49,300 nt of DNA from Nemertoderma westbladi (lineage: Eukaryota > Animalia > Xenacoelomorpha): positions 1-49,300 of the forward strand of contig JAUCBJ010000482.1 in the NCBI GenBank assembly GCA_032718475.1. The letters run 5' to 3'. Made by a program: the position numbers and the translations under genes. The number at the start of each line of letters is the position of its first letter. Position 1 is the stretch's first letter. This document shows positions 8,149 to 36,904 of the stretch, piece after piece. The notes beneath the pieces were generated by a model, which worked only from the letters and a program-made list of their open reading frames with translations, searched no databases and was not told the origin of the DNA.

Positions 8149-10038
8149 TTAAGATTTATGAACAGAATTGATATGGGTGTTTAGGTAGCTTTGTCGACTG
8201 AATTCTTTATTACAATAACCGCACTTATGTTTGATACCTTTATGTATAGAATCGACATGCCGGTTTAGGTCTTGTTTGCAACTGAATTCTTTATAACAAT
8301 ATCCACAGTTATATTTGATATTTTTATGTATAAAGTCGGCATGTCGGTTTAGTTCGGCTTTTGAACCAAATGATTTTCCACATTCGGAGCAGCTATATTT
8401 GATGATACCTTTGTGGACAAAGTTAACGTGGATGTTTAGACTCCTTTGCAGGCTGAATTCTTTATTACAATAATCGCATTTATGTTTTATATCTTTGTGA
8501 ACGGATTCGATATGTTGTTTTAGTACGTGTTTGTAACTGAATTCTTTATTACAATAATCGCATTTATGTTTTATATCTTTGTGAACGGATTCGATATGTT
8601 GTTTTAGTACGTCTTTTCTAGCAAATGATTTTTCACAATGAAAACAGTTGAACTTGATATCTTTATGGGAGTAGTTGATATGGACGTTTAGATTCGCTAC
8701 CTTGGTGAATTCTTTATTACAATAACCGCATTTATGTTTGATATCCTTATGCATAGAATCGACATGTTGTTTTAGTACAGCTTTTCTAGCAAATGATTTT
8801 CCACAATGAAAACAGTTGAACTTGATATCTTTATGGGAGTAGTTGATATGGATGTTAAGATTCGTTAACTTGGTGAATTCTCTATTACAATAACCGCACT
8901 TATGTTTTATATGTTTATGTATAGAGTCGACATGGTGATTTAGTACGTGTTTGTAACGGAATTCTTTATTACAATAACCGCACTTATATTTAATATCTTT
9001 ATGTATAGAGTCGACATGGTGATTTAGTACGTATTTGTAACGGAATTCTTTATTACAATAACCGCACTTATATTTAATATCTTTATGTATAGAGTCGACA
9101 TGTTGTTTTAGATTGCATTTTGTAGCAAATGATTTTCCACAATCGGAGCAGCTATACTTGATGATACCTTTGTGGACAAAGTTAACGTGGGTGTTTAGAT
9201 TCCTTTGCTGACTGAATTCTTTATTACAATAACCGCACTTATACTTGATATCTTTATGTACAGAGTCGACATGTTGATTTAGTACGTGTTTGTAACTGAA
9301 TTCTTTATTACAATAACCGCATTTATGTTTTATATCTTTGTGAACGGATTCGAAATGTTTTTTTAGTTCGGTTTTTCTAGCAAATAAATTACCACAATCG
9401 AAACAGTTGTACTTGATTTCTTTATGAAAGTACTTGACATGGGTGTTTAGACTCCTTTGCTGGCTGAATTCTTTATTACAATAACCGCACTTATGTTTGT
9501 TATCTTTATGGGTAGCGTCAACATGCTTCTTTACATAATTTTCCATTTTAAACAGTTTCTCACAATAATCGCATTTATACTTATTCTTTACATCTTTATG
9601 AACGGATTCTATATGTCTCTCTAAAAGTTCTTTGTTATTAAATAATTCATTGCAATGCAAACAGGAACTGGTGTCTGAAGAAGATACCAAGTCCCCAACC
9701 GTTTCATTAGAACTACCGAATTCTGTTGTTGCACAACTGATTGTCGCTTCTGTGCCTTCGGTTTCAATAGGCCTACCATACGAACAGTCTGGACTGTCAT
9801 TTTCCCGTTTTTCAACAATAAAATAATCTCCTGATGGTTCATAAGAAATATCTTCGTCATCTAGTACAGGGACAACATTTACTCTACCGAACAAATTGTT
9901 GTGATCTTCGATGGTAGATGATCCGTAAACGCACTTCTCTTGTTTAACATCAAGAAAATGGGTAGTGGTTTGTTCTTTCTTTATAATTATACCGCCACCA
10001 GATGATTTATCTTTCAATAAATTAATATGTTGATCCAT
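8149..10038 (-). CDS. Intronless tandem C2H2 zinc-finger protein (18 fingers), ~629 aa
   Basis: Uninterrupted ORF with first ATG at 10038. 18 CxxC-x12-H-x4-H units, mostly 28 aa, with KDIK(Y/H)KC linkers; acidic N-terminus; minus-strand AATAAA at ~8084-8093. Confidence 0.9.
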   Translation of the reverse strand: MDQHINLLKDKSSGGGIIIKKEQTTTHFLDVKQEKCVYGSSTIEDHNNLFGRVNVVPVLDDEDISYEPSGDYFIVEKRENDSPDCSYGRPIETEGTEATISCATTEFGSSNETVGDLVSSSDTSSCLHCNELFNNKELLERHIESVHKDVKNKYKCDYCEKLFKMENYVKKHVDATHKDNKHKCGYCNKEFSQQRSLNTHVKYFHKEIKYNCFDCGNLFARKTELKKHFESVHKDIKHKCGYCNKEFSYKHVLNQHVDSVHKDIKYKCGYCNKEFSQQRNLNTHVNFVHKGIIKYSCSDCGKSFATKCNLKQHVDSIHKDIKYKCGYCNKEFRYKYVLNHHVDSIHKDIKYKCGYCNKEFRYKHVLNHHVDSIHKHIKHKCGYCNREFTKLTNLNIHINYSHKDIKFNCFHCGKSFARKAVLKQHVDSMHKDIKHKCGYCNKEFTKVANLNVHINYSHKDIKFNCFHCEKSFARKDVLKQHIESVHKDIKHKCDYCNKEFSYKHVLKQHIESVHKDIKHKCDYCNKEFSLQRSLNIHVNFVHKGIIKYSCSECGKSFGSKAELNRHADFIHKNIKYNCGYCYKEFSCKQDLNRHVDSIHKGIKHKCGYCNKEFSRQSYLNTHINSVHKS

Positions 10039-14278: not shown

Positions 14279-14566
14279 GAATTCCTACGAATTACCCAAA
14301 AAAACACAAAATTACCCAAAAATACACAAAAAAAATAAAAAAAAAACACCAAAAATTTACCCAAAAAAACACAATATTACCCAAAAAACTTACCCAAAGA
14401 GACAAAAATAATTTATATCCTATAAAAAGGTATAACAGTATAGAATTATATTCCCTAAATGCCGTGAATTTTCAAAATTTTATTTTTATTCGAATTAACT
14501 TTGTAAAAGATTACATTGAGTCCTCATTTGTATTTGTTATATCTATTGTACGCCTATTAGTCAAGT

Positions 14567-14653
14567 GGTTCAGTAGCTCAGTCGGTAGAGCGTTGGAAAT
14601 TATATGTGTAGTAGGTATTGAGTTCGAATCCTAGTAAGTGCGAATTATTTTTT
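14567..14653 (+). other. tRNA-like Pol III unit inside the LTR (second copy at 29464-29550)
   Basis: A box/D-arm TAGCTCAGTCGGTAGAGC from 14574, B box GAGTTCGAATCC at 14620-14631, T6 at 14648-14653. Acceptor and anticodon stems do not pair, so this is not a functional tRNA. Confidence 0.7.
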
Positions 14654-14719
14654 GTGCAGAATTTCAACTCATTTAAATTGACCGCTACAAATTAAGTTGC
14701 ATTTGTCTGTACCTAGATT

Positions 14720-14870
14720 AACCAATGAGACTGCAGTTATTAGATTGTAACCAATGTCGTGCAAATTATATATTAGCTGGACCAATAGTTATCTTTAAAA
14801 ACCTGTTAGAACCTATAGAACAATCGAGAATTTTCTCGATTGATTGCAGCACAAATTTGGTATATAAAGG
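14720..14870 (+). promoter_or_regulatory. Putative LTR Pol II promoter: 3 CCAAT boxes, HSE-like palindrome, TATA box
   Basis: ACCAAT at ~14721, ~14750 and ~14781; AATCGAGAATTTTCTCGATT at 14822-14841; TATATAAAG at 14861. Confidence 0.55.
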
Positions 14871-16338
14871 TGCGATTTGTTCATTAGTTATCTTATCTTA
14901 TATATCTGAGATTTAATTATTCTGAGTTATCTGATATTTGTTTATTCTGTCATTAGTTTTCAGATTACATTTTGTATTATTATCTGCAATAAATTCAGAA
15001 ATACCGCTACCTGCTTTTCTTTTCACCATGATTCACTACGGTGAACACTCTTAGGAACAGGATGGCCGGCTAGAGATCGGGCCGCAGCAATGAACGGGAA
15101 CATCGAGGGAATGTAGACAGGAGACAACCCGCAATACCACCTTAGTTATTCGCCCATCGCCTGAAAGGTTAGACAGCGTTCGACGCCTTGCTACCTAAGC
15201 GTAAGACCAAAGATCAAAGGTAGAAGTAGTGACACGCTGTGAGCCCAAAATTACATCTTAGGGACTGTACTGTCTTAATTCAGGAAAAACCACAGTAGAC
15301 CTTCACATTCCTACGGGGGAGAGCGCAGGCAGATACTAGTACGCAGATAGGACGTAGGCACACCGGTACGAAGCATACACATTGGTAGGGTGCAGCAAAC
15401 TGTACGCCTAACTCTTGCTAAGTGCAGGTGCGTTTGCGACTATTTGCAGTACAACGGTGTCCATTGCATTAGAACTTGTAGGCTAGGAGGGTTGCTGTGT
15501 TTCACCTGAATTAGGATTGTACCGTTCAGGCGGTAGGGCAGTTTACAACTAGGCGCAAATAAATTGAGGCTATTAGGGATATACTAACATCTACCGTGTC
15601 CCCGCCAACGTCCTGATAGGAAGTTACCCAGCCTACCTAGGTGACTAAAATTCTAGATAAGAGCCAGGATAGCTATTAGTAACTGTACGCCTACTGTAGT
15701 AAACTAACACATTTCTTCTTAGTATTAGGGGCCTGGTAAATTAAAATTGCCGAATTCTGGGCGTAGCATTAACCTTATGCCTGAATTTGAGTCCTGGAAA
15801 TACGCAAGAGGGGAAGGAACCTTATCATTCGTGAGTATTGGACCTACAAGTTATAAAATTAGAATATTCGTAAAATGCACACCGTACCCAGTAATTATAT
15901 ATGTGAAGGAGCAAAACTGCTTTGACTGTTCAGAATTAACACACGCGCGTTAGAAATTATTTACACCTCAAAATATATAAAATTAACTTTTGTCCGTACT
16001 GTGCTTTGCCCGCTAGTTAGACATCTCCAAATCTCTGCCTCTGTACCTAGCTAGCGTCTCTTTCGCCCAACCATATAAATCACACCGCGGCAAAGTATAC
16101 GAGCCTCTTAGTCCGTCAGTGAGTCAGCCTGATTTTAGGATTCGCTGCGCGGGATTTTGTTTTATCGAAGTTTGTCTGCTCGTAGACTGTTTTCTGCCTC
16201 ACCGGTTATAAGAGATCGATACTGCAATATATTCGCTTACTTAGAGTTTACTGTTTTGGTGAGAAGGTCGGATTTATGATTTGATTCACAAACTTTACAG
16301 TAGGATATTGCAGGTATTGTTACTGTCTCTTCGCATCA

Positions 16339-16349
16339 GTAGGAATGTG
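16339..16349 (+). promoter_or_regulatory. Non-canonical primer-binding site complementary to LTR positions 15304-15314
   Basis: GTAGGAATGTG directly abuts the LTR end and is the exact reverse complement of CACATTCCTAC (15304-15314); no TGG-type tRNA PBS is present. Confidence 0.65.
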
Positions 16350-17150
16350 TTTTACTGAACTACGGTTCGGTTGGACTAAAGTTATTTGAAAATTTTGTAT
16401 TTTGAGGTAAAAGTTTATATTTGATTGGCTAAGTGCTAATTTTTTGACATAAAATTTGATTTGTACCGCGTGTAAAATATTTTTTGGAATTGAATACCGG
16501 TGTTTAAAAAGGGTTTAAATACCATATTGTACCGGTACAAAATTTTTCGTAAAGGTAAAACCTAACTCTTTTGTTTTTCAGGATTCAGAACTCATTTCTA
16601 GACTGTAACGGGAGCAAGACCGTGTTTAGCAAGTTTGGGAGATAGATAACTCAACAACTTTGGTTGGGAAAATCGCGCTTCGTCCGCAACGCTGAAAACG
16701 GAAAGGTTCACGTCCGGTTTGTATCTGGGAATCTGTTTTTCTGGAGAATTATTGGAGTGGGTGAGTTCGAAAAGTTGCATAAATAAGTTAGGCATTACCG
16801 TATTAGTTAAAAATTATTGTGGGTTCCACTGTCTCAAGTATTTATGCATTCCGTATGATTTCTTTGTTCATTGCTGAATTAGTCCGTATTATTGTATTTA
16901 ATTTACCTTTTGATAACGCATATCGTTATCCGATTTATTTGTTATAAAATTGGCCGCTAGGCTAATTTTATTATATACTTATACCGTGACATTTATTTGC
17001 TGTAAAATTGGCCGTTTAGGCTAATTTTATCCATCTGCTATAAAATCGGCCGGTAGGCTAATTTTATATGACTGTAATTAGTACCGTTTAGATAAAATAC
17101 GGTAAGTTTGATACTTTGACACTCACTTTACTTGACTTACAACTACCGAA

Positions 17151-19679
17151 ATGAGTGACAAACAAGACTATACGAAGAATACACCTACCGACTATGACTC
17201 ATGTGACGCGGATAAGTCAGCAGCGGAAGAACAACAGGGGAAGACTCGCGAGCCTACCGAACCTACACCGTGTGCGTCACCAGTACATCCAACGGGAGTA
17301 CCGGATGCCGTAGTACGAGGCGACGGCAGGACCGAGGACTTTCTAACTGTTCCGCAACCTAGATACAGGGAAACGGACATGGTAAGTTCAGCAGGAAGCC
17401 AGGAGAGTGTGGTTAGAAGCGTCGGCGGTTACATGGCGCATATTACCAGGAGTATTGGAGAAGGCCAACGCATATTAGACGAGTTGACCGCTCCGATGTC
17501 TCGATTCGAGTTCTACACCCTCCAGGTTAGAGTACAAAGTAGAGTACACAAGTCCGTAGATAACCTAATTGGTCTACAAGATCTAGCTAGACAGAGACAG
17601 GACATGGATACTCAGCTTAGAATCCTCGAGAAACTAATGATCACTAGAGAGAAACTGATTCAGTTTAAGTCGACGATTAGGCAGGTACAACAGGAACAAG
17701 CGGACCAGTTGTTAGGTGAGTCAGTTTCGGACGAATTATTGCAACCCGAGGAAGAACAGGAACTGTATAGGCTAGATGGACAATTGAAACACCTGATGGA
17801 TCACTTACGTATGTGCGGCGAAGACGTCGGCGATTTGGAAACCGTGCCGGAATATACGAGGGAAATTTCACCCGTACGAATCGAATCGGCAACGGGAATA
17901 TTGGATCAATCGTTGGTAAGTATTCGTAGCGAAATTGGCGAGGGAAGTATGGTCACGTCAGAAGTTGCTCGACAACAGCAAGAATTCTACCGACAACGAC
18001 GAGAAATGGAGGAACAAGCTCAACTTCTAGTGATGCAGGCAGCAGTAGAGGAAGAGAAGCTACGCGTTGCGAATGTAGCGAGAATCTCTCATCTACAGGA
18101 ACAAGCTGAATTAGAAGCAGCTGAAATAGAAAGGTTAGAGGTAGACATTGCCCGACAAGCGGCAGCGGCAGCAGCCGAGTTAGAGCGACAAACGGCAGCA
18201 GCCGAGTTAGAGCGACAAACGGCAGCAGCCGAGTTAGAGCGACAAACGGCAGCAGCCGAGTTAGAGCGACAAACGGCAGCGGCAGAGTTAGAGCGAGAGA
18301 GGTTAGTTTCGGAAGCACGGGCCGAAATGAAAACACGGCAAATAAAAGCTCAATCCGCTATACGACAAGCTGAGTTTGAGGCGCAACGACAACAAACGGA
18401 ACAACGAGAGAAGACAGCTAAACTTCATTTCGAACTCGAGAAGAAGGCGAGAGAATTAGCGAACGCCGAGGAAGATCTGGATCAAAAGGCCCGCGATCGA
18501 TCAATGAGATCTCGAGACGGACATGACTTGGACCAGATAGAGGTAAGACATCGCCAAATTCAGGAACGGAAGAAGGAAGGAAGCGTAGGAGCACCCGGAC
18601 GGGAACGACAATTAGTAAAAGATTTGTGTCAACGATTCCCACAAGTAACTCCTATGTTTGCACCAATTATGACTAAGGAACCTGTTTCGATTGCTGGTAG
18701 TAGTAATATTTCTCCTATCCATGGCGCGACGGAACACAGGTTTGTTATTCCGGACAAGTTTACATCGCCAAGAGCAACGTCGTCGCCTATTCCGAAAGTC
18801 AAGGTAAGTAACCCGCCGATTACAGATCGTAGTAGTTTGTTGACTGGACCTGCACCACTGACGACTAAACAGGTGAGTCCACCATCGACACCTAAACCCG
18901 TTACACACTACGCTTACCCAATGACGTTTCGACCTACAAGGCCAGTCGATTCAGCTGTTACTCGACCACCGAACCAATTTACATCGCAATCTACGACTTC
19001 GAGGAATACTTGTGAGCCTACCGAACAACGGAGAACAGTGGATACGCGACCGGTTCAGTTTACATCGCAATCTACGACTTCGAGGAAGACTTGTGAGCCT
19101 ACCGAACAACGGAGAACAGTGGATACGCGACCGGTTCAGTTTACATCGCAATCTACGACTTCGAGGAAGACTTGTGAGCCTACCGAACAACGGAGAACAG
19201 TGGATACGCGACCGGTTCAGTTTACATCGCAATCTACGACTTCGAGGAAGACTTGTGAGCCTACCGAACAACAGAGATCAGTGGACGATGTTCCGAAACG
19301 AAACGTCAGAATTCGTACGACACAACGGACGCGAGCACGTCGACCACCATATCCAGATGATAGTAGTACTTCGAGCGAATCGGATTACCCGAAACGCGAG
19401 GTATTTAGAACAGGGGCGGCCGATGAATATAAACGCGAGCGTTCAGACAACTCCTTTGTAGACAATCCTCCACAGAATACACCAACACAGAAGGCGTTAC
19501 AACCAACGGACGCAATCAGTACACAACAGTTCGCCGACATCCTGCGACCAGTTGTTAACAAGTTGGCTCAGATCGAGGAACGCTTGGAGGAAGTTCACAC
19601 CGACAGTTCGAGAAATTCCGAATTCGAACACAATAGAAATCCAAAGGTTCCGCAAAGACAAATACCATCGACCAGCTAA
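17151..19679 (+). CDS. Gag-position ORF (coiled-coil and low-complexity N-terminal part), 842 aa
   Basis: First long ORF after the 5' LTR. E/Q/A/R-rich coiled coil, AAAELERQT repeats (~18160-18297), 81-bp repeats (~18978-19287); no CCHC knuckles. Confidence 0.75.
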   Translation: MSDKQDYTKNTPTDYDSCDADKSAAEEQQGKTREPTEPTPCASPVHPTGVPDAVVRGDGRTEDFLTVPQPRYRETDMVSSAGSQESVVRSVGGYMAHITRSIGEGQRILDELTAPMSRFEFYTLQVRVQSRVHKSVDNLIGLQDLARQRQDMDTQLRILEKLMITREKLIQFKSTIRQVQQEQADQLLGESVSDELLQPEEEQELYRLDGQLKHLMDHLRMCGEDVGDLETVPEYTREISPVRIESATGILDQSLVSIRSEIGEGSMVTSEVARQQQEFYRQRREMEEQAQLLVMQAAVEEEKLRVANVARISHLQEQAELEAAEIERLEVDIARQAAAAAAELERQTAAAELERQTAAAELERQTAAAELERQTAAAELERERLVSEARAEMKTRQIKAQSAIRQAEFEAQRQQTEQREKTAKLHFELEKKARELANAEEDLDQKARDRSMRSRDGHDLDQIEVRHRQIQERKKEGSVGAPGRERQLVKDLCQRFPQVTPMFAPIMTKEPVSIAGSSNISPIHGATEHRFVIPDKFTSPRATSSPIPKVKVSNPPITDRSSLLTGPAPLTTKQVSPPSTPKPVTHYAYPMTFRPTRPVDSAVTRPPNQFTSQSTTSRNTCEPTEQRRTVDTRPVQFTSQSTTSRKTCEPTEQRRTVDTRPVQFTSQSTTSRKTCEPTEQRRTVDTRPVQFTSQSTTSRKTCEPTEQQRSVDDVPKRNVRIRTTQRTRARRPPYPDDSSTSSESDYPKREVFRTGAADEYKRERSDNSFVDNPPQNTPTQKALQPTDAISTQQFADILRPVVNKLAQIEERLEEVHTDSSRNSEFEHNRNPKVPQRQIPSTS

Positions 19680-19687
19680 TCCACCAG

Positions 19688-22600
19688 GTGAGTTTAGAAC
19701 TTGGGGAGAAGACGAGTCAGCTAGAGATTCCATCGACGACAGATGATAACGCCGGAAGGCTTGCGAGTCTACCTACCCCAATAACCTCAACAATACCTGT
19801 CGATATCGATGATGACGCGTTGAGAAATCATCAAGTGGAACAAGCTGCATTGGACAAAGAATTAACGGAGAAGACTATCAGGTGGTTAGAACAAGATACA
19901 GCTGAACCTGGTAGCTACGAACCATGTATGTCGGAACAAGAGAAACAATCTTTGAGGATCATGGAAGATACTATCCGCCAGACGGAAGACGGACATTATG
20001 AGGTAGGGATGTTATGGCGTAGCCAAAGTCCTAAACTCATAAATAACTATCCACTAGCTTTAAGACGTCTACACTCAATACGGCAACATCTATTAAAGGA
20101 CGAGAAAGCCCATCTGCAGTACAACACTCAGATGGAGACGTATTTGACCAAGGGATACGCTATCCGAATGACTAACCCAGAGATAGTGACTAACCAGACA
20201 TACTACTTGCCACATCACTTTGTGAGACACCCCGACAAACCAGACAAAGTACGTGTAGTCAATGACTGTGCTGCTCTGTTTGAGGGAATGTCCCTCAATA
20301 GCGAGTTGATGGATGGACCAAACATGAATAATTATCTTATGGGGGTGATTATGCGCTTCCGTCAGCGTCAAGTAGCTTTTACTTGCGACGTTGAAGCTAT
20401 GTTTCACCAAGTGAGAGCGTTAGAGCGAGACAGAGACAGTTTGAGGTTCCTCTGGTACCCGGAAGGAGACTTAAGTCTACCACCGGTGACTTACCAAATG
20501 CAAGTTCGCGTTTTCGGTGCCAGGGACAGCCCAAACTGTACAATGTACGCCCTAAAGCAAGCCGCTAGGGATCAGAAACACCTGTATGACCCAGAGATAA
20601 TTAAGATTGTGGAACGTGACTTTTACGTCGACGACGGTTTACAGAGTTGCGACACAGTAGAACGTGCTACTACAGTAGCACATCAATTACGGGACTGCTT
20701 AGCGGGCGGAGGTTTTAACCTCACCAAATTCGCCTCAAACAGTGCCGAATTAGTAGACTCATTCGGAACGACTGAGCGTGGAGGTGGTGACATAGACCTA
20801 GAGTTCGAACCACTACCGACGACCAAGGTGTTGGGGCTCTTTTGGGACCCAAACACGGACAACTTTCGAGTGAAGGTGAGACTGGACAGTCAAGAAAACA
20901 CACTGACAAAGAGATCATGCTTGTCAAAATTGAGCCGATTGTTCGATCCATTAGGATTCATCAGTCCAATAATACTGCAAGCCCGCATTTATATGCGCAG
21001 TATTTGGAAGGATGGACTGACATGGGACGAGCCGATCTCATCAGACCAAGTGGACTTATGGAAGACCTGGGAGGCAGAATTATCTTCGCTAGAGGATTAT
21101 TCCATACCCAGAGTCTACTTTCCATTACAAACAACATTTCCTGACAACTTGGAATTACATTGTTTTTCGGACGCCAGTGACAACGGTTTTGGTGTGGCAG
21201 CGTACTTGCGCAGACAAGTAGACTCAGAAGAATTCGATGTTTCGCTCATTACTTCTAAGGCAAAAACAATGCCTACTAAGTATATGACGACACCACGAGC
21301 TGAGCTACAAGCCGCAACCCTGTCCACCACCATCGTGAACCTTATACAGACAGAACTACAGTCAAGTTTACAGATATTTTATTGGACTGACGCGACATTG
21401 GTTTTATTTTACATAAACAACGACACACTTGAATTCAAGACATTCGTAGCTAACCGTCGCGCAGAAATTCTAGACCGTTCAATAAAGGAAGATTGGCGAC
21501 ATTGTCCCGGACCACAAAACCCAGCCGATATTGCGTCGCGAGGAATGATGCCTGAGGAATTCTGTAAACCGGAGAACAAAGAATTTTGGCAACACGGACC
21601 ACAATTCTTACAAAGATCAACACTAAATTGGCCACCACTATATGACAACAAGTCTAACACTATCCCTAAGGACGCCGAAATCAAAAAACCAAAGAAAGGG
21701 AAAGCAAAGAAAAAGACGGCGGCTAAACTCAAGAAGAAACCGAAGGCGAAATGGAAAGATATAACTTCAAAGGTCAAGAACGGAAGACTTGCGAGCCTTT
21801 CTACACCAGACATATCGCCAGACGGTCAACCAGACACGTTACTAGACAGCCAACCAGACATTTTGCCAGACATATCACAAAATGTTCTACCAGACACTAG
21901 TAACATATTGACAAACAGGAAAGCCGCAGTTTCCCTATTGGAGCGGCCTTCTATTGACAAACAGCCAGACACGTTACCAGACGTATCGCCAGACACGTTA
22001 CTAGACGGTCAACCAGACGTTTTGCCAGACACGTCACTAGATATTTCGCCGGATGTTCCGCGAAACATTTTACCAGACATGTCACAAAATGTTCTACCAG
22101 ATACTAGTAACATATTGACAAACAGTAAAGCCGCAGTTTCCCTATTGGAGCGGCCTTGTATTGACAAACTACCAAATTTGACACACTTGAGCAACCACAA
22201 GCACGGTGAAACCTCATGTATTACAGATGTGGGTAGTACCTACGCTAATGTAAATACAGGTGTTACTCTGCGCTCAAGAGACATACCAAACTTGCAACCT
22301 ATGGTGAGACCTGGGATTAATGTCGGCAGAAAAATAAGTTTACCGAAACCCACTGACCCCATAGAGTTCAAACCACCATTAACGATCGACTTACAAAGTA
22401 CTGACAACCAGGGTAAGAAGACGAAGAAGGACAAATTACTTGTAGACCCGGACGGATCAACAGTCGACAAGGGAATACTTACCGGCGGACCCGTGGGCCC
22501 TTCTAGTAAATCAAAACCTTCCAAATTCTTTGACTTACCTGATGACGTCACAAATACTCACGTCGACCGTATTGTAAACCTAACAGATTCTTGGACAAAC

Positions 22601-24070
22601 GCTTGCCGAAAATTAGCATGGATTGTACGTTTTGTACAATACGTTAAAGGCAAACGAGACTTTACACGTCGACTTACATTGGCTGAGATTGACAGGTGTG
22701 AAATTAAATTAATTCGCCATTACCAACTGCGATATTTCGCACGCGAATTCACATCTATAAATCAAGGTCAACCAATCAAGTCGTCACCAATATTGAGTTG
22801 GAGTCCGATAATTTATAATGGCTTAATTTGTCATAAATCTCGGCTTCAAAACATTGACTTTAACACAAACTTTAGATACCCAATAATAATACCGCAGCAT
22901 CACGAACTACAACGTGCAATGATACTGGACGCACATTTACATCTGAAACACGCTGGAAGACACCACTGTCTTTCCTACTTACGTACAAGATTTGTATTAA
23001 TTAGACCCAGTAAAGCATTAAGTTCAGTGACACGTACGTGTATTATTTGTAAAAAGGTACATTCTAGAATAGGTACCCAAGAAATGAGTGAACTTCCACA
23101 AGCACGACTTCAAGCATTCAGACCACCTTTTACAGAGACTGGAATTGATTGCTTTGGTCCCATACATACGAAACGTGGACGTATACTAGTAAAACGCTGG
23201 GGACTGATTTTCACATGTATGTCCAGTAGGGCAGTTCATATTGAACGTGTGATGGATCTTTCCACCAACGCGTTTATACTAGCATTGCGGCGATTTATCG
23301 CTAGACGCGGACTAGTGAAATGCTTGTACTCAGACCAAGGGACAAACTTTGTTGGTGCTCGAAATGAGATTGCTAGAGCCTTTAAGAAATTAGATCATGA
23401 TCAAATCTCGAACGAACTACAACCTCACAAGATTGTTTGGAAGTTTAATCCTCCAGATAGTCCATGGAGAGGCGGAGTCTGGGAGAGATTGATTAGATCT
23501 ATCAAAACGGCAATGGCAAAAGTCATTCCAGTAAACCACATATTGACAGACGACCAACTGACAACATTGTTTGTTGAAATCGAGGCAATACTAAATACTA
23601 GACCAATAGTATTAGTACCCGATGACAAACAATCCCAATTTGCTTTGACACCGGCACACCTGCTTATGCAGGCACCGACAACATTGACGCCTATTTCTAT
23701 TCCAATAGAAGGCGATAGCTACGGTAGAAAAGCGTGGAAAATCACGCAACTACTAGCTAACAAATTCTGGGAAATATGGCAAAACCATTATTTGCCCTCT
23801 ATTTCTGCCAGAACAACATGGTACAACAACACCCGCGCATTAAAGCCGGGAGATCACGTGCTGTTAGCGGAAGTGAATCTAAAAAGACGCTTCTGGATAA
23901 CAGGTGTTATTTTAGACACACATCCATCTATGGACGGAGTGACAAGAACTGTGACGGTACGGACAATTGACGGTCGTACAGTTGACAGACCGACTCAACG
24001 TCTCATACTTCTTGAAGAGACTCGTAACGAGTCTGGAGACTACAAATCTCCAACTAATATTAGTAAATAA
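19688..24070 (+). CDS. pol: BEL/Pao Pol: reverse transcriptase, RNase H, integrase (no protease seen)
   Basis: RT: YYLPHHFV, KVRVVNDCA, DVEAMFHQV, FYVDD (TAC at 20624). RNase H: HCFSDAS, PRAELQAA, WTDAT, NPADIASRG. IN: H..H..CIIC, GIDCFGP, YSDQGTNF, GGVWERLI. The GTG start is probably not a true initiation site. Confidence 0.95.
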   Translation: MSLELGEKTSQLEIPSTTDDNAGRLASLPTPITSTIPVDIDDDALRNHQVEQAALDKELTEKTIRWLEQDTAEPGSYEPCMSEQEKQSLRIMEDTIRQTEDGHYEVGMLWRSQSPKLINNYPLALRRLHSIRQHLLKDEKAHLQYNTQMETYLTKGYAIRMTNPEIVTNQTYYLPHHFVRHPDKPDKVRVVNDCAALFEGMSLNSELMDGPNMNNYLMGVIMRFRQRQVAFTCDVEAMFHQVRALERDRDSLRFLWYPEGDLSLPPVTYQMQVRVFGARDSPNCTMYALKQAARDQKHLYDPEIIKIVERDFYVDDGLQSCDTVERATTVAHQLRDCLAGGGFNLTKFASNSAELVDSFGTTERGGGDIDLEFEPLPTTKVLGLFWDPNTDNFRVKVRLDSQENTLTKRSCLSKLSRLFDPLGFISPIILQARIYMRSIWKDGLTWDEPISSDQVDLWKTWEAELSSLEDYSIPRVYFPLQTTFPDNLELHCFSDASDNGFGVAAYLRRQVDSEEFDVSLITSKAKTMPTKYMTTPRAELQAATLSTTIVNLIQTELQSSLQIFYWTDATLVLFYINNDTLEFKTFVANRRAEILDRSIKEDWRHCPGPQNPADIASRGMMPEEFCKPENKEFWQHGPQFLQRSTLNWPPLYDNKSNTIPKDAEIKKPKKGKAKKKTAAKLKKKPKAKWKDITSKVKNGRLASLSTPDISPDGQPDTLLDSQPDILPDISQNVLPDTSNILTNRKAAVSLLERPSIDKQPDTLPDVSPDTLLDGQPDVLPDTSLDISPDVPRNILPDMSQNVLPDTSNILTNSKAAVSLLERPCIDKLPNLTHLSNHKHGETSCITDVGSTYANVNTGVTLRSRDIPNLQPMVRPGINVGRKISLPKPTDPIEFKPPLTIDLQSTDNQGKKTKKDKLLVDPDGSTVDKGILTGGPVGPSSKSKPSKFFDLPDDVTNTHVDRIVNLTDSWTNACRKLAWIVRFVQYVKGKRDFTRRLTLAEIDRCEIKLIRHYQLRYFAREFTSINQGQPIKSSPILSWSPIIYNGLICHKSRLQNIDFNTNFRYPIIIPQHHELQRAMILDAHLHLKHAGRHHCLSYLRTRFVLIRPSKALSSVTRTCIICKKVHSRIGTQEMSELPQARLQAFRPPFTETGIDCFGPIHTKRGRILVKRWGLIFTCMSSRAVHIERVMDLSTNAFILALRRFIARRGLVKCLYSDQGTNFVGARNEIARAFKKLDHDQISNELQPHKIVWKFNPPDSPWRGGVWERLIRSIKTAMAKVIPVNHILTDDQLTTLFVEIEAILNTRPIVLVPDDKQSQFALTPAHLLMQAPTTLTPISIPIEGDSYGRKAWKITQLLANKFWEIWQNHYLPSISARTTWYNNTRALKPGDHVLLAEVNLKRRFWITGVILDTHPSMDGVTRTVTVRTIDGRTVDRPTQRLILLEETRNESGDYKSPTNISK

Positions 24071-24734
24071 TTAGGAGTTTACAAATAGATTTCCACGTAC
24101 CTGTACACTGTAGTAAGGACAGCGGTAGAATTCCATTGTCTTTTATATGTGAACATTGAGGGTAGTACCCTTATGTGTCACATAGGAGCGGGATTTGTAG
24201 GTATAAGAAATGGAATTCTACTTGGAACTCACAATATTGAGACATTTTCGAAAATTTAGACAATCCATTTGGATTTGAAAAATTTTAAAATTTTCTCCAG
24301 TGAATAGATTTCAGGGTACAGTCGGGTGGAACTTAAAATTAGAGAAACAAGAGAGGAAGACTTGCGAGCCTTTCTTAAAATTTTAATTAAATTTTACACG
24401 GTCTTGTTTCAATAAGTTACGTCAATAAATAGACTCCCCTATATTTATTACTAATTCTTGATTGCTTATTTTCTGATAATAGTTTGGGATCAAAAAGTGA
24501 GTATTTTAGACTCACAGCCAGTTTAGCCCAAATTCGTTTTTATTTCGGCAAAAAAAAATTTTAGATAAGAAGCAGCGTGTCATTAAAGAAACCCTAGATC
24601 TTAGGCTATGGGTAGGAGGTTAGAGCGTTGTCGAGCCCAAAGGGCAGACGAAACTCTCACGTCTCCTCACAACTAACTACAAACTCTGTTGTATTCCCTC
24701 TAGTAGTAATGATTATGTAACCACACCTCTAATT

Positions 24735-27700
24735 ATGGAGAAAGGGATACAAGGAGAGCCGAGATGGGGATATGATATCCAAGAGGAGGCAGCAGCGCCA
24801 TTCGAAAGATTTGGAGCCAAGGACTACACTATATTTGGTATAAAAGAATTATCAGAAAGTACAGCGAAACTCGCGAGAACTAAATATGACTCAAATGTAT
24901 TAAAGAGAAGACAAAATGCATTAAACGAAAGAATCGAAAGTTTGCGCAAAACCTTCAATGAACTTTACCCGTACGACGCTTTGTGTGATACGGGAGACAT
25001 TAGCGAAGACCCCGATACTGAAATTAGTCGTTTGTATCATACCATGCAATACCTAAAGGCGCACGAACCTATGCCCGCGGTACGCGATGAATTCGATGGA
25101 ATGCATCTTTACAGACGAACTCGAGGGGATGATAGAGAAACCAAGGAAGCATTTTCAGTTTATAAACTTTATTATCAATGCGGTTCTTGTATGCGCGAAC
25201 AACGAAATGCGATTCCGATGCGTTTGAATAAGGAAAATCCCGAACCGATATTGGCGAGGTGTTCGAACCATCAACAACTACGCTACCAGGAAGGAGGGTA
25301 TCCTTTATCGAATCCATATCATTCATTTGCTATGACCGGACCAAAGGCGGGAGAAACTGTCGTTTACCCACCCAAGGTTGTTGAACCCGATGTATTTGAA
25401 CTTACGCTGGACGAGGCAAATCAGTCAACCCGCGAAAAGAAAGAAGCTCTTAGCCTATACAGAGCCTACAAGGCTTTCGAGAAAGGTGAGATGGAAGAAT
25501 GGGGCGGAAGACTCGCGAGCCTACCTTACCATTGGACGTCACACGATCAAACTCCAGCTAAGGAGATGACACCGGAAGTTTTCGAGAGCATAAACTTTGC
25601 TCAAAACGTTATTCAGAGACTACAGATTGCATCCCCGGAGAGGACAAGAGAAATGCAACCATATAGTACTTCAACTACGAAACCATTGAGTACGACACTC
25701 AATTTTCCTATTAGTATACCAGTCCGACAGGATACGACGTACGAAATACCCATCGTGGATCATCCAGAAATCATTTCAAACTTGGAGTTTCTTCCTGCAG
25801 TTGTTTTCAGCGATATGAGTAAGATATATGATTTACGTAGACATATTACTCAAAAGGTTGTGTACAACGTTCCACCTCATATTCAAGACTTCAAGGAACT
25901 GGATAGAGCTGGTGCCGATATAGCTCCGAGTAATTTGAAAGGATATTTAACCAAGACGATTCGTTTATGGATTGGAACCGGAACCTTCGAGTCGGATACA
26001 GATATTGCCGCGGATTGGCGAGGTAAGGTTATTCGTTTCGAAGATGATAAGGACATAGAGAAGATTTGGCAACCTTCGGAAGAATTGTTGGATGAATGGA
26101 ATAGAACGTTTAGATCGTTTCAGGAAAATGGTTACATGTTTTACGATAACGAGGGCGGCAGTCATCAACAGAGTTTGACTTCTAAGACTATACAAATTAG
26201 AGCGGCGGACGGAGTCCTGCACGTTTTCAGTAGACAGAGGAGCGACAAACGAATGCCGATACCTCCAGCAAATACAAAGCGACACCATCTTATCACTGAC
26301 ATAGTAAAGAAGATGGACCAAGCTTGTAATATCGACGCTAGAATGCTACCGAAGATGGTAAGAAACATGATTTTAGATAAAACTGTTGTAAAGATTGGAT
26401 CAGGAGTAAGGGAGGACTTAATTAGCGACTTCGCCGGCATGACGGACAGCGATGACCGACTACCGACACCTTACGTCGACACTCGACCTCTTATTTTGTG
26501 GTCTATAGAACAGGGATATTTTCGTGAGTATAATACTCAGAAGACTGGAACTGGATACATTTCCTACCTGTTATTCAATTGGGATTATAAGGAAAGTAAG
26601 AGAACCAAGTATATTGAGACTTATGGAGAAGGTGATACTCCAGATATGAGTGAGTTTGAATCACAGCTCAAATGGAGAGGATGCGTGTATTGGGCTATTA
26701 CGTCACCTCCAAGAGCGGTCTTACAATATTATTTAGCAATAGAGTCGTCAGTAAATGTTTGCCTAATCGCCGACATTGTGTCTCGGACTCTCAAAAGACA
26801 TCCACTTTGTCTCGGAGAAGATCATACGTTCTACATGGAAGGGAGGATTCATACCGACGTGTTTAGACGATTCCTCGAACCCTTCTACAACTCCGACGCT
26901 CAGTGTAATGCCTTTACTCGAGCAGGATTTAGTATATTTCGAGACGTGTATCTTCGCTGTGCGGGATCTCTTATCGAAAGACCATCTATGTTTACATTGT
27001 TACCCTATGAAGGAGAACGTATCGTGGAGATTACGGATGAATCACGGCAGACGCGCGCGCCTATCGGTCACCTTGGTGATGATTTCGAAGTAACTACTAC
27101 GATCACTGACGATCCTTTAGAGGAACTTCTTGAGATAGAAAGGAACCTCCCGAAGAAATCTCAGACGGAGATTCGACAACTTGAAGCAACAGATGCTATA
27201 GTTTGTATACAACCTTCAGAAACCTACCAACCCATAGATCCAGATGATTACGATTATAGTGTGGGAGGAAGCGCTCGACCGATTGGAGATCTTATATACG
27301 AACGAGTGTGGTACCCTGCCAATACGATGTGTGGTAAATGTGGCGTCGCTGGACATCATATGACAAAGTGCAGTGGAAAGCACATTACTACGACTCAGCT
27401 AATCTGTGGATGGTGTGGAGATCAAGGGTCTCATACCTTTTATACTTGCTGGAGATTTATGGCTCAATGTACTTATTGCAATATAAAAGGACATCGAGCA
27501 TCTGAATGCCAACTAAGAGATATACCCTATGAACACGAATCTGTAAAACTCGTGAGAAAATTATTCGATGAGTGGGAAGATTTAGCCGACGAACATGTAT
27601 CGGCACAAAGAAGACGATTTCCGATGAGGGCGCATCTTGGATTTTGGGCGGTAAATCCCCAAACGATGATGTCGGAAGGATACATCTCCGCTATGCCCCA

Positions 27701-28460
27701 ATATGACGAACTTATCGAGGTAGTCGATATTTTGCCCCACGACAGTGGATTCCGAGTAGTGCGCGAGTATCTACTACAGATTCACCCGGATAACAAAAAC
27801 ACGTGGAATTTTCAGAAAGTCGTTAATCGCATCACGTATGGTGAATTCGATCGTTTCCGAACTGAAAAACGGAATAAAGGAGCTTGGTTAACCGTCGCAT
27901 GGGCGTACCGAGCCGCGTTTTACCATAAACGTATACGAGCGAGCGTATTCGAGGAAGAGGAGGTCCTAGAGGCGACAAATATACCAGCCACTCCGGTTGC
28001 GCCGTCTGCACGTCACCCTCGGGAGGACGGACAGGGTAGGATCATACGGGTCCAGAAAGTTAGCCAACAGTTAAAGAAGTCTATTAATATAGAAGAACGC
28101 AAGGGAGCTGAGCCGACCATTCGAATTACTCGGGATACGGTATCGCTTCCTAGAGAACCAACAGGAGGATCGGGACATACACCAGCTGATCAAAAGGGGG
28201 CGCAAGCTACTCTTGGGTCTGCGTCGTGCGCTTCTCGCGCGTTCCCAGACGTTCTACCAACTGTAGTGACAACTGATCGGTCACGAGGAATCGGTCGAGG
28301 TTTTGGGATGCCAAATAGACGAATTTGCGAGGAAATGGTCGCACCGTCTCTCAACGTCCAAACGAAACCAGTGACTCGCCCCACAAGTCCCATATCGCGA
28401 GCAAAGTCACCTGTGCGCAGTTTTCGAGGACGCGGCAGGGCTCGATCAACTAAGCGATAA
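24735..28460 (+). CDS. Extra ORF3 (1241 aa): DEDDy-like 3'-5' exonuclease domain + three CCHC knuckles + basic tail
   Basis: MFYDNEG (ExoI DxE, ~26136), TIQIRAADG, LPKMVRNMILDKTVVKIGSGVREDL (ExoII), YVDTR, QYYLAIES (ExoIII-like, ~26727). Knuckles CGKCGVAGHHMTKC, CGWCGDQGSHTFYTC and CTYCNIKGHRASEC (27330-27509). No signal peptide or transmembrane segment seen, so not env-like. Confidence 0.8.
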   Translation: MEKGIQGEPRWGYDIQEEAAAPFERFGAKDYTIFGIKELSESTAKLARTKYDSNVLKRRQNALNERIESLRKTFNELYPYDALCDTGDISEDPDTEISRLYHTMQYLKAHEPMPAVRDEFDGMHLYRRTRGDDRETKEAFSVYKLYYQCGSCMREQRNAIPMRLNKENPEPILARCSNHQQLRYQEGGYPLSNPYHSFAMTGPKAGETVVYPPKVVEPDVFELTLDEANQSTREKKEALSLYRAYKAFEKGEMEEWGGRLASLPYHWTSHDQTPAKEMTPEVFESINFAQNVIQRLQIASPERTREMQPYSTSTTKPLSTTLNFPISIPVRQDTTYEIPIVDHPEIISNLEFLPAVVFSDMSKIYDLRRHITQKVVYNVPPHIQDFKELDRAGADIAPSNLKGYLTKTIRLWIGTGTFESDTDIAADWRGKVIRFEDDKDIEKIWQPSEELLDEWNRTFRSFQENGYMFYDNEGGSHQQSLTSKTIQIRAADGVLHVFSRQRSDKRMPIPPANTKRHHLITDIVKKMDQACNIDARMLPKMVRNMILDKTVVKIGSGVREDLISDFAGMTDSDDRLPTPYVDTRPLILWSIEQGYFREYNTQKTGTGYISYLLFNWDYKESKRTKYIETYGEGDTPDMSEFESQLKWRGCVYWAITSPPRAVLQYYLAIESSVNVCLIADIVSRTLKRHPLCLGEDHTFYMEGRIHTDVFRRFLEPFYNSDAQCNAFTRAGFSIFRDVYLRCAGSLIERPSMFTLLPYEGERIVEITDESRQTRAPIGHLGDDFEVTTTITDDPLEELLEIERNLPKKSQTEIRQLEATDAIVCIQPSETYQPIDPDDYDYSVGGSARPIGDLIYERVWYPANTMCGKCGVAGHHMTKCSGKHITTTQLICGWCGDQGSHTFYTCWRFMAQCTYCNIKGHRASECQLRDIPYEHESVKLVRKLFDEWEDLADEHVSAQRRRFPMRAHLGFWAVNPQTMMSEGYISAMPQYDELIEVVDILPHDSGFRVVREYLLQIHPDNKNTWNFQKVVNRITYGEFDRFRTEKRNKGAWLTVAWAYRAAFYHKRIRASVFEEEEVLEATNIPATPVAPSARHPREDGQGRIIRVQKVSQQLKKSINIEERKGAEPTIRITRDTVSLPREPTGGSGHTPADQKGAQATLGSASCASRAFPDVLPTVVTTDRSRGIGRGFGMPNRRICEEMVAPSLNVQTKPVTRPTSPISRAKSPVRSFRGRGRARSTKR

Positions 28461-29336
28461 AAGGGAGGGCAAGGGTGGATGGAAGACTCGTGAGCCTTTC
28501 TTGTGAATTTGTGATTTATTTGAATTATATGTTTTATATTTAATTAGTAAGTTTTGTATTCTGGAAAACTCATATTTAGTAAGATTTATATTTAGTAAGA
28601 ATTTATGTTTGTAAGAATTTATATTTTATATTTGTGATTATTCCGAACTTATGCAATTTATATTGTTCCGAATACTATGCAATTTATATCTTGTAAGCAG
28701 TATTTGTATTTACAGTGAAATAGAAAGTAAGAGTAGATGGAAGACTCGTGGGCCTTTCTTATAGTTTCATTTGTAAAGTGTTATATTTTGTATTTAGAAA
28801 GTTTTATAGTTAGAAAGTTTTGTGCTTAGAAAGACTCATATTTGTAATTATTCCGAACTTATGCAATCTACATTTAGGCACGAAAGTATTTGTAATTATT
28901 TGAATTTATGCAATATTTCAGATGCAATAGTAGATGGAAGACTCGCGAGCCTTTCTTATGATTTTCATTTATTTGTATTTGTAATTGTTTGAATTTATGC
29001 AATATTGAGATGCAATAGTAGATGGAAGACTCGCGAGCCTTTCTTATAGTTTCATTTATTTGTATTTGTAATTGTTTGAATTTATGCAATATTGAGATGC
29101 AATAGATTTATATTGGTGAATTTAATTTAGATTTATATTGTACTTACTTAGTAAAGCCTTAACTACGTAAAGTTTGAATTTGTAATTATTTGTATCGAAT
29201 CATTATGTAGAAAGGAAGTATTGTTTGAAATTTAATTGTAAATATGTAAGTACGCCCTAAGTATTCTATAGTTTGATTGATTATTGGTGAAAACCGTATA
29301 TTTTATGCACGATAATATCCTGTTTTCATGGAGCGG
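28461..29336 (+). repeat. AT-rich 3' UTR with ~88-bp imperfect tandem repeats carrying the GGAAGACTCGCGAGCCTTTC hairpin; ends in the PPT
   Basis: Hairpin copies at 28481, 28739, 28936 and 29024; GGAGCGG at 29330-29336. Confidence 0.7.
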
Positions 29337-31235
29337 TATAGAATTATATTCCCTAAATGCCGTGATTTTCAAAATTTTATTTTTATTCGAATTAACTTTG
29401 TAAAAGATTACATTGAGTCCTCATTTGTATTTGTTATATCTATTGTACGCCTATTAGTCAAGTGGTTCAGTAGCTCAGTCGGTAGAGCGTTGGAAATTAT
29501 ATGTGTAGTAGGTATTGAGTTCGAATCCTAGTAAGTGCGAATTATTTTTTGTGCAGAATTTCAACTCATTTAAATTGACCGCTACAAATTAAGTTGCATT
29601 TGTCTGTACCTAGATTAACCAATGAGACTGCAGTTATTAGATTGTAACCAATGTCGTGCAAATTATATATTAGCTGGACCAATAGTTATCTTTAAAAACC
29701 TGTTAGAACCTATAGAACAATCGAGAATTTTCTCGATTGATTGCAGCACAAATTTGGTATATAAAGGTGCGATTTGTTCATTAGTTATCTTATCTTATAT
29801 ATCTGAGATTTAATTATTCTGAGTTATCTGATATTTGTTTATTCTGTCATTAGTTTTCAGATTACATTTTGTATTATTATCTGCAATAAATTCAGAAATA
29901 CCGCTACCTGCTTTTCTTTTCACCATGATTCACTACGGTGAACACTCTTAGGAACAGGATGGCCGGCTAGAGATCGGGCCGCAGCAATGAACGGGAACAT
30001 CGAGGGAATGTAGACAGGAGACAACCCGCAATACCACCTTAGTTATTCGCCCATCGCCTGAAAGGTTAGACAGCATTCGACGCCTTGCTACCTAAGCGTA
30101 AGACCAAAGATCAAAGGTAGAAGTAGTGACACGCTGTGAGCCCAAAATTACATCTTAGGGACTGTACTGTCTTAATTCAGGAAAAACCACAGTAGACCTT
30201 CACATTCCTACGGGGGAGAGCGCAGGCAGATACTAGTACGCAGATAGGACGTAGGCACACCGGTACGAAGCATACACATTGGTAGGGTGCAGCAAACTGT
30301 ACGCCTAACTCTTGCTAAGTGCAGGTGCGTTTGCGACTATTTGCAGTACAACGGTGTCCATTGCATTAGAACTTGTAGGGTAGGAGGGTTGCTGTGTTTC
30401 ACCTGAATTAGGATTGTACCGTTCAGGCGGTAGGGCAGTTTACAACTAGGCGCAAATAAATTGAGGCTATTAGGGATATACTAACATCTACCGTGTCCCC
30501 GCCAACGTCCTGATAGGAAGTTACCCAGCCTACCTAGGTGACTAAAATTCTAGATAAGAGCCAGGATAGCTATTAGTAACTGTACGCCTACTGTAGTAAA
30601 CTAACACATTTCTTCTTAGTATTAGGGGCCTGGTAAATTAAAATTGCCGAATTCTGGGCGTAGCATTAACCTTATGCCTGAATTTGAGTCCTGGAAATAC
30701 GCAAGAGGGGAAGGAACCTTATCATTCGTGAGTATTGGACCTACAAGTTACAAAATTAGAATATTCGTAAAATGCACACCGTACCCAGTAATTATATATG
30801 TGAAGGAGCAAAACTGCTTTGACTGTTCAGAATTAACACACGCGCGTTAGAAATTATTTACACCTCAAAATATATAAAATTAACTTTTGTCCGTACTGTG
30901 CTTTGCCCGCTAGTTAGACATCTCCAAATCTCTGCCTCTGTACCTAGCTAGCGTCTCTTTCGCCCAACCATATAAATCACACCGCGGCAAAGTATACGAG
31001 CCTCTTAGTCCGTCAGTGAGTCAGCCTGATTTTAGGATTCGCTGCGCGGGATTTTGTTTTATCGAAGTTTGTCTGCTCGTAGACTGTTTTCTGCCTCACC
31101 GGTTATAAGAGATCGATACTGCAATATATTCGCTTACTTAGAGTTTACTGTTTTGGTGAGAAGGTCGGATTTATGATTTGATTCACAAACTTTACAGTAG
31201 GATATTGCAGGTATTGTTACTGTCACTTCGCATCA
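29337..31235 (+). repeat. 3' LTR (1899 bp)
   Basis: Direct repeat of 14439-16338, followed by the AACAG TSD. Confidence 0.95.
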
Positions 31236-34200: not shown

Positions 34201-34718
34201 GTGTTTATTCTAGCTGTATGTGTTTCCACTTTCCAGGTGTTTCCAGTCATTTTCCAGGCTGCCAGGGTTTTCAGCTTTTTAGTAGGGTAAACCGGGGTTG
34301 TATGGCCATGTGGGTTGTATGGCCACCCTTGACATAAAGTGCTATAACTTTACTTTATTTTAATGTCTGTCAGTTTTTATTACTTCTAAATGAAGCTGAA
34401 TAATTTTCCAATAAAATGACATATAAACCATATCTTCAATTGATTCCATTATTTTACAGTGACATGGCAAAGTTTCCGTTCATGAAAAAGTGTAACTTTT
34501 AGGTTTTGTGAATTTAGAGTAACACACACTAACAGGTGCCTTCTGGAACAAGTTAATGCTTGACCATATTGCAATGATGTTGAATAGTATGTTTATTAAA
34601 TTATAATTAATAGGCCTAAATAATTTAATTTATTCGATTTCGTTAACTTTTAGATGAGTTATTTACCCTCAAAAAATCATGGCCATACCACAGTCGGGGA
34701 GAAGTTCTATTTTCAACT
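30550..34718. repeat. Tandem duplication, ~2083-bp unit (3' third of the 3' LTR + flank)
   Basis: Identical ORFs at 30644 and 32727 (offset 2083); junction at 32633-32634 with CT microhomology; creates a partial third LTR at 32633-33318. Confidence 0.95.
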
Positions 34719-36780: not shown

Positions 36781-36904
36781 TATCATCCATGATCATTGAT
36801 CAGGCATTCCTTGGCTTAATGAGCCTCAAAAGATTATCCCATTCAATCTGTCAATATCATGAATTGGGGTGTTAGCGATGATGGAAAATATATAGACATC
36901 TTAA

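Follow-up and report, generated by a model that had tools for sequence, protein, structure and literature searches.

A primer-binding position complementary to the element's own LTR in a BEL/Pao-type retrotransposon of Nemertoderma westbladi

In a BEL/Pao-type retrotransposon of Nemertoderma westbladi, the first 11 nt past the 5' LTR are exactly complementary to a segment inside that same LTR, and a comparable self match, in other letters, is found in most of the BEL/Pao relatives for which an LTR end could be defined. Taking all readings of this arrangement together, we regard priming from the element's own RNA, in one form or another, as highly probable. The element was identified in the window, i.e. 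the whole stretch of 49,300 nucleotides that was analysed (contig JAUCBJ010000482.1), to which all coordinates below refer.

The element and its primer-binding position

The LTR retrotransposon is 16.8 kb long (14439-31235) and is bounded by a 5' LTR of 1900 bp (14439-16338, + strand), delimited by LTR–LTR comparison, and a 3' LTR of 1899 bp (29337-31235, +); where the 5' LTR ends (16338) was set by the point of divergence from the 3' LTR flank. It is flanked by a 5-bp target site duplication (14434-14438, +, with its partner copy at 31236-31240), and readings of 7 or 9 bp are also possible; on the 5-bp reading the termini are TA...CA and not TG...CA. The LTRs differ by 4 substitutions and 1 indel, and the insertion is therefore young. 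Its three ORFs are all open. ORF1 (17151-19679, +) occupies the gag position and belongs to no recognisable family (a Pfam search gave no match), whereas ORF2 (19637-24070, +) encodes a BEL/Pao reverse transcriptase (RT), RNase H and integrase (PF05380, 1e-42; PF18701, 2e-20). PF05380 is present in all of the best 120 ORF2 homologues, and identity to the best homologues is at most 43%.

The ICTV profile of the Belpaoviridae gives LTRs of 0.2-1.2 kb, a genome of 4.2-10 kb and an 18-nt primer-binding site (PBS) for tRNA-Arg or tRNA-Gly, and describes BEL/Pao replication as tRNA-primed and poorly understood (PMC8742986). The present element agrees with this description in having two LTRs with a target site duplication, a Pao-type Pol in which RT and RNase H precede integrase, and a third ORF. 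It departs from it in its 1.9-kb LTRs and total length of 16.8 kb, and in having neither an 18-nt site for a tRNA-Arg/tRNA-Gly 3' end nor recognisable gag capsid/nucleocapsid and protease domains. No capsid, nucleocapsid or protease was recognisable between ORF1 and RT (17151-19900), and the gag/protease part (residues 1 to ~770) of 6 of 6 homologues had no significant match anywhere in the element, so that these domains appear either lost or diverged beyond detection. The element would thus be named BEL/Pao-type on Pol alone. In a tree built without an outgroup, from which 4 of 80 loci were left out as too short, it stands on a long branch next to both self-pairing families and families with TGG sites.

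The pairing reported in the first-pass annotation is exact: the primer-binding position (16339-16349, +), which begins at the first base past the 5' LTR, pairs over 11 nt with 15304-15314 (+), the candidate self-primer, whose predicted 3' end is C15314. The annotation was also right that there is no TGG-type tRNA PBS, the first TGG after the LTR being at 16372, 33 nt away; the primer-binding position is not of tRNA type and starts with GT, as in most self-pairing relatives, and ARAGORN found no tRNA. On the + strand the complement of the PBS is unique except for the copy in the 3' LTR (30201-30211). With 11 nt at offset 0, the pairing falls within the rule of an earlier search for self-priming elements (PMC6317226), which asked for 10 bp or more, 0-5 bp past the LTR.

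When the LTR was shuffled with dinucleotides preserved, 6 of 20,000 shuffles reached an 11-nt match, or 27 of 20,000 when offsets 0-3 were allowed, and Markov models of order 0-4 gave an expected chance of 0.5-4.8e-4. Among the internal 11-mers, 10 of 12,986 have a complement in the LTR, the PBS 11-mer counted in. In the wider test used on the relatives (see below), 2 of 300 shuffles reached the focal match. Depending on the test, the chance of the focal match therefore spans 3e-4 to 7e-3. An additional pairing of 15293-15299 with 16351-16357, proposed in the same annotation, exists on paper but does not exceed chance: shuffled flanks reached it in 1187 of 3000 trials for that side, 1356 of 3000 for the other and 1277 of 3000 overall, and random real flanks did so in 243 of 3000. 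Extension of the duplex on either side of the 11-mer was rejected since shuffles equal it and copies vary there; only the 11-mer counts, not its flanks. Two other candidates were also discarded, namely a primer built by splicing in this element (best junction match 9 nt, with poor splice sites) and an LTR-borne ribozyme or other known RNA family (Rfam gave 6 matches, each of them far under its cut-off).

Variation among copies was assessed over 15245-15375 in four runs from three studies, counting variants present at 1% or more. This segment holds 8 substitution and 7 indel variants, none of which lies within 15293-15314; an additional G immediately after 15314 is one of them. The purine-rich tract that straight away follows the predicted cut (15315-15328, +) is highly variable, with 5 substitution and 5 indel variants, nearly all of which are changes to, or insertions of, purines. 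That the 11-mer is free of variants counts for little, as the same holds for 15245-15276 and 15329-15369; it is consistent with constraint and does not prove it. Among the 40 variants listed out of 203, none falls in either 11-mer. In run X1, a group of loose-end sequences carries a T at position 15306, where a G-U pair would remain, and in a similar group of 3 contigs from run X2 the 3' end of the 11-mer appears disrupted.

Several other features of the window were observed. Between 17239 and 29024 there are 11 copies, at up to 2 mismatches (14 at up to 3), of a 17-nt motif whose core is of the CTCGCGAG type. Every copy is on the + strand, and the copies are spread over the three ORFs and the UTRs; neither the remainder of the window nor 673 kb of relatives contains the motif. 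A weak tetraloop hairpin can form from it, and it is possible that it represents a packaging or protein-binding signal. U3 carries a tRNA-like Pol III cassette (14574-14653, with a copy in the 3' LTR), which has an A box at 14574, a B box at 14620 and six T at 14648 and which matched nothing in ARAGORN or Rfam. From 30550 to 34700 there is a tandem duplication with a 2083-bp period, either real or an assembly effect, in which the final 686 bp of the 3' LTR recur together with its flank. Tandem arrays lie at 8155-9533 (84-nt units), 36895-38510 (62) and 46330-47987 (52), the last two being related and in opposite orientation.

Self-pairing in BEL/Pao relatives

Relatives were collected as 93 loci with a Pol alignment, all of them distant (about 35-43% Pol identity to the element); the viral contigs searched contained no relative. 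The LTR end could be defined from repeats in 19 loci, 10 others were scanned without fixing that end, and the 64 without a usable LTR were not counted. A single pipeline was applied to the relatives, accepting offsets of 0-5 and matches that were either contiguous or ran across GT-AG sites. An own-LTR match of 10-14 nt starting 0-4 nt past the LTR was found in 14 of the 19 relatives with a defined end, which represent about 12 groups. Each of these matches was reached by 0-6 of 300 shuffles, and when the PBS of one family was paired with the LTR of another, only 2 of 370 combinations matched, both between sister families. Loci L081-L093 are BEL/Pao-related contigs inside records titled as bacterial MAGs and are most likely host DNA that entered the bins.

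In 11 of the 14 (L008, L013, L014, L022, L024, L038, L044, L075, L081, L082 and L091), the match exists solely across a GT-AG splice junction within the LTR, and the LTR intron is kept in both LTRs where both are present. The remaining 3 (L004, L072 and L086) have a contiguous match, as does the focal element. As for the misses, L015 (11 nt) and L039 (10 nt) match only under a looser splice filter; in L071 the donor region is changed in the 3' LTR and kept in the 5' LTR; and L016 and L027 have tRNA-type TGG sites and no self match. These counts are to be read with the facts that the 3' LTR of L039 stops at the contig end, that L038 was assigned the primer site of its sister L018, that the LTR end of L091 was set by likeness to L024 and that the LTR start of L016 is undefined. 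The splice filter was fixed after the first relatives' results had been seen and is thus partly tuned; all 4 loci obtained after it was set match, one of them being the sister of L024. In the scan with a free LTR end, 8 of 10 loci match, with 0-2 of 20 shuffles reaching each match. Of the 14 relatives that match, 11 have an A(A/T)TAAA word at the site or downstream of it, and 3 lack one.

On the PBS side, 12 of 15 duplexes open with GT and 3 with AGT, the focal element being among the 15; a GT start is likewise seen in 5 of the 8 free-end matches. In the sisters L081 and L082, two paired positions differ and each PBS matches its own LTR. Compensatory change between PBS and LTR in related families, which the first-pass annotation had named as a check on its proposal, is what these comparisons display: complementarity is kept with different letters. 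On these comparisons, the focal 11-mer very probably represents the same feature in contiguous form. The annotation had also inferred an independent evolution of self-priming; an origin special to this element is not supported, as the feature is widespread in the sampled lineage. The same comparison bears on the view that the focal pairing is a chance match in one element and that priming is really done by a fragment of a host tRNA or by some other small RNA. Events with odds of 1 in 1000 are to be expected in a large scan, and half-tRNA primers are known in other groups (PMC6317226); however, most relatives have a self match in different letters with the GT start that they share with the focal element, and we consider an accidental match very improbable.

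Transcription, splicing and folding of the LTR RNA

Motif scans placed a candidate main promoter at 14722-14890 (+), with three CCAAT words, a TATA word (14861-14868) and an Inr-like word at ~14884. Its use is suggested by a splice. The available sequencing data are contigs of four runs from one organism that cover the LTR; contigs cannot show start sites, and the two deepest runs covering the LTR contain many variants. One contig of one run, X4, joins 15167 to 16582 with 22 letters on its short side. The corresponding GT-AG intron (15168-16581, +, 1414 nt) contains a branch-point-like word, a pyrimidine tract and AG, and spans both primer site and PBS, so that the splice seen in this run removes both. 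X4 is labelled 'DNA?'; that it is RNA is suggested by the joint together with a step in depth at the acceptor and an excess of A>G over T>C (42 versus 19 places, compared with 22/27 and 20/23 in X1 and X3). Runs X1, X3 and X5 did not show the joint, and X5 has no cover at either 11-mer.

If the joint is real, transcription therefore starts upstream of it, most simply at the CCAAT and TATA promoter near 14886, and 15304-15314 is probably not the 5' end of the RNA, unlike in Tf1. Downstream of the primer site is an AATAAA (15558-15563, +), whose copy in the 3' LTR (30455) would supply the overlap that strand transfer requires. Second TATA and Inr-like words are present near the LTR end (16074-16120), and X4 depth rises over 16118-16319. 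X1 and X3 contain a variant in which the end of U5 (16274-16338) is swapped for 26 other letters and which is kept from 16338 on. A second donor-like site, at 16761, coincides with the end of an X4 contig, and 24703, just ahead of the ORF3 ATG at 24735, resembles an acceptor; with these two sites, ORF3 may be made from spliced RNA.

Folding predictions cut against a simple model in which the two sites pair in cis, with the reservation that long-range folds are unreliable. In the fold of 14886-16420 the probability of the primer–PBS helix is 0.0, because the primer site is partly sequestered in a predicted long rod-like hairpin (15291-15499, +; -90.5 kcal/mol, z -6.4, 0 of 200 shuffles) and the PBS in a predicted 9-bp local hairpin (16336-16358); forcing the helix costs 26 kcal/mol. 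It was also absent when two long cut pieces were co-folded. The helix does form in RNAs starting at about 15285-15306 or with shorter pieces: for every start tested from 15285 to 15306 the best fold contains 9-11 of its pairs, and for RNA starting at 15304 it dominates the ensemble (0.75-0.99 per pair). These results keep alive the readings with a second start or with a primer supplied in trans.

The account that we favour, on balance probable if only just, is that an 11-nt primer comes from within the unspliced RNA and is released after C15314 by the RNase H of the element. What is observed is that the two sites are complementary, that no TGG site is present, that relatives have the signature in changed letters and that a splice seen in one run removes both sites; from these we infer priming itself, the steps after pairing being modelled on Tf1 and on general retroelement replication. 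Transcription would start near 14886, placing the 11-mer about 420 nt inside the unspliced RNA; spliced RNA would serve translation only, and unspliced RNA would retain primer and PBS. The 11-mer, on the same or a second packaged RNA, would anneal to the PBS once the 15291-15499 hairpin had been opened, and RNase H would cut after C15314, by analogy with Tf1. RT would then copy about 1,020 nt (16338 back to 15315) and jump to the 3' LTR, which would need an RNA ending past 30212 (AATAAA at 30455). Plus-strand synthesis would recopy the PBS from the primer in each cycle, and this would keep the two sites matched and enforce the covariation seen. The element would then carry, in contiguous form, the primer that most relatives build by splicing.

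A more strictly Tf1-like arrangement, in which a second start at about 15285-15304 would bring the 11-mer to the 5' end of the RNA or close to it and RNase H would cut after base 11, is the one proven in Tf1 (PMC7175516), and it draws on the predicted dominance of the helix in RNA from 15304 and on the Inr-like word at 15303. That word, noted in the first-pass annotation, is indeed in the sequence, but no TATA word lies near -30 of it, the spliced form begins upstream of 15165 and one X4 contig is continuous over 15247-15430. The GT-AG joint from 15167 in X4 places at least one start upstream, contrary to the start at 15304 that the annotation had envisaged; moreover, in the spliced relatives such a first exon would measure just about 3-7 nt. 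We judge this arrangement unlikely.

The alternative predicted partners of both sites (hairpins 15291-15499 and 16336-16358) also bring in an RNA switch, whereby the pairing would serve splicing, packaging or translation and priming would proceed from, e.g., the LTR-edge hairpin; in fungal GalEa elements a hairpin of this kind stands where the PBS would be (PMC5445492). However, the duplex in the element and the 14 relatives ends 0-4 nt from the LTR edge, a shared end that has the geometry of a primer, and no alternative primer site is present, which leaves a pure switch with little probability.

ORF3 and comparison with known self-priming systems

ORF3 (24624-28460, +) is predicted to contain a WRN/DEDDy-like 3'-5' exonuclease (about 26130-26750) and three CCHC-type knuckles. 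DEDDy enzymes are recognised by the motifs ExoI (DxE), ExoII (D) and ExoIII (YxxxD). Atlas features of the nuclease region resemble PF01612 clusters very closely, with 30 of 30 named matches being PF01612, and those of a longer region resemble WRN-type 3'-5' exonucleases strongly. Two word-index searches returned no ORF3 homologue; against 50% representatives there were 3 matches, of which only P0123 covers the nuclease part (E 3e-4). ORF3 and P0123 have in common the DxE and D motifs and the three knuckles, and the acid of the last motif is E in ORF3 and D in P0123. The exonuclease had no Pfam match and nothing significant in PDB sequence searches, and structure predictions for ORF3 gave no usable model (pLDDT 32 and 29). 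Going by the Atlas features and the motifs shared with P0123, ORF3 looks like a WRN-type exonuclease.

A link between self-priming and the ORF3 nuclease had been part of the first-pass annotation. The relatives do not support it: an ORF3 homologue was found in 0 of the 93 loci, the gap between pol and the 3' LTR measures 70-459 nt in the 19 self-pairing or same-family relatives measured, and since self-pairing relatives lack ORF3, ORF3 is not needed for self-pairing. This also weighs on the possibility that the primer acts in trans, short LTR transcripts (from the 5', 3' or solo LTRs) annealing to the PBS and being trimmed by ORF3 to C15314. Short primer pieces do co-fold with the PBS region in the predictions, a separate spliced primer RNA would explain why the intron is kept in both LTRs of the relatives, and the very close WRN-type resemblance and zinc knuckles of ORF3 would suit the trimming; DEDDy ORF3s have been proposed, in the accessible part of PMC5408684, to process the 3' ends of element RNA. 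However, the relatives without ORF3 would need another enzyme, and the ORF3 activity is itself a prediction for which the structural models have pLDDT of 32 and 29. We regard trans priming of this kind as improbable.

A third ORF with a DEDDy-type exonuclease, such as is predicted for ORF3, is found in the bdelloid elements Juno and Vesta, where its role is a proposal (PMC5408684, part of the text). These belong to other lineages, and the ORF3 described here additionally has the three knuckles; a term search of the accessible text of PMC5408684 returned no mention of a PBS or of self-priming for Juno and Vesta.

Self-priming has been described or predicted for Tf1/sushi, Tcn1 and TAR elements (PMC6317226, PMC4600332, PMC6934838, each in the text available). 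In Tf1 the self-primer consists of the transcript's first 11 bases (PMC7175516, in part). Tf1 and Tf2 of Schizosaccharomyces pombe, Tj1 and other members of the Tf1/sushi group are like the present element in that an 11-nt LTR-adjacent PBS pairs with the element's own LTR RNA and there is no tRNA site (PMC7175516, PMC4600332; parts of both). However, Pol of Tf1/sushi is that of a Ty3/gypsy chromovirus, whereas Pol of the element is Pao-type, so that the element is not a Tf1/sushi member; furthermore, the complement in Tf1 is the 5' end of the RNA, whereas here one spliced form, known from contigs only, appears to start upstream. Plant TAR elements of the copia group (Houba, Osr-1) and the Tcn1 chromoviruses were predicted to self-prime by the same rule of at least 10 bp at 0-5 bp after the LTR; they belong to other superfamilies, and a splice-built primer is not mentioned in the portion of PMC6317226 consulted. 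The Conserved Hairpin Site of fungal GalEa elements is similar in that a short hairpin lies at the LTR edge and a tRNA PBS is lacking; no LTR complement to the hairpin site was found there, whereas the element and its relatives have one (PMC5445492, in the accessible text). For BEL/Pao elements no report of self-priming was found in the literature searched, a search with supplements, Repbase and most subscription papers outside its scope, and term searches of the accessible parts of PMC3118150, PMC554778, PMC6238403 and PMC12440569 returned no mention of a primer site.

As a tentative and in its full form doubtful generalization, a broad animal BEL/Pao lineage may prime with an internal piece of LTR RNA, mostly assembled by splicing; in this element the primer site would be intron-less and gated by the hairpin and by the intron spanning primer and PBS, with trimming by its own 3'-5' exonuclease. 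The element offers a testable case, predicting RNA with its 3' end at 15314, RNA with its 5' end at 15315, and strong-stop DNA of ~1,020 nt. If self-priming is confirmed, it would have arisen in BEL/Pao too, with a primer taken from inside the transcript and mostly built by splicing, and the start of reverse transcription would be tied to host splicing. It would also explain BEL/Pao elements without a detectable PBS and provide a simple rule for finding them.
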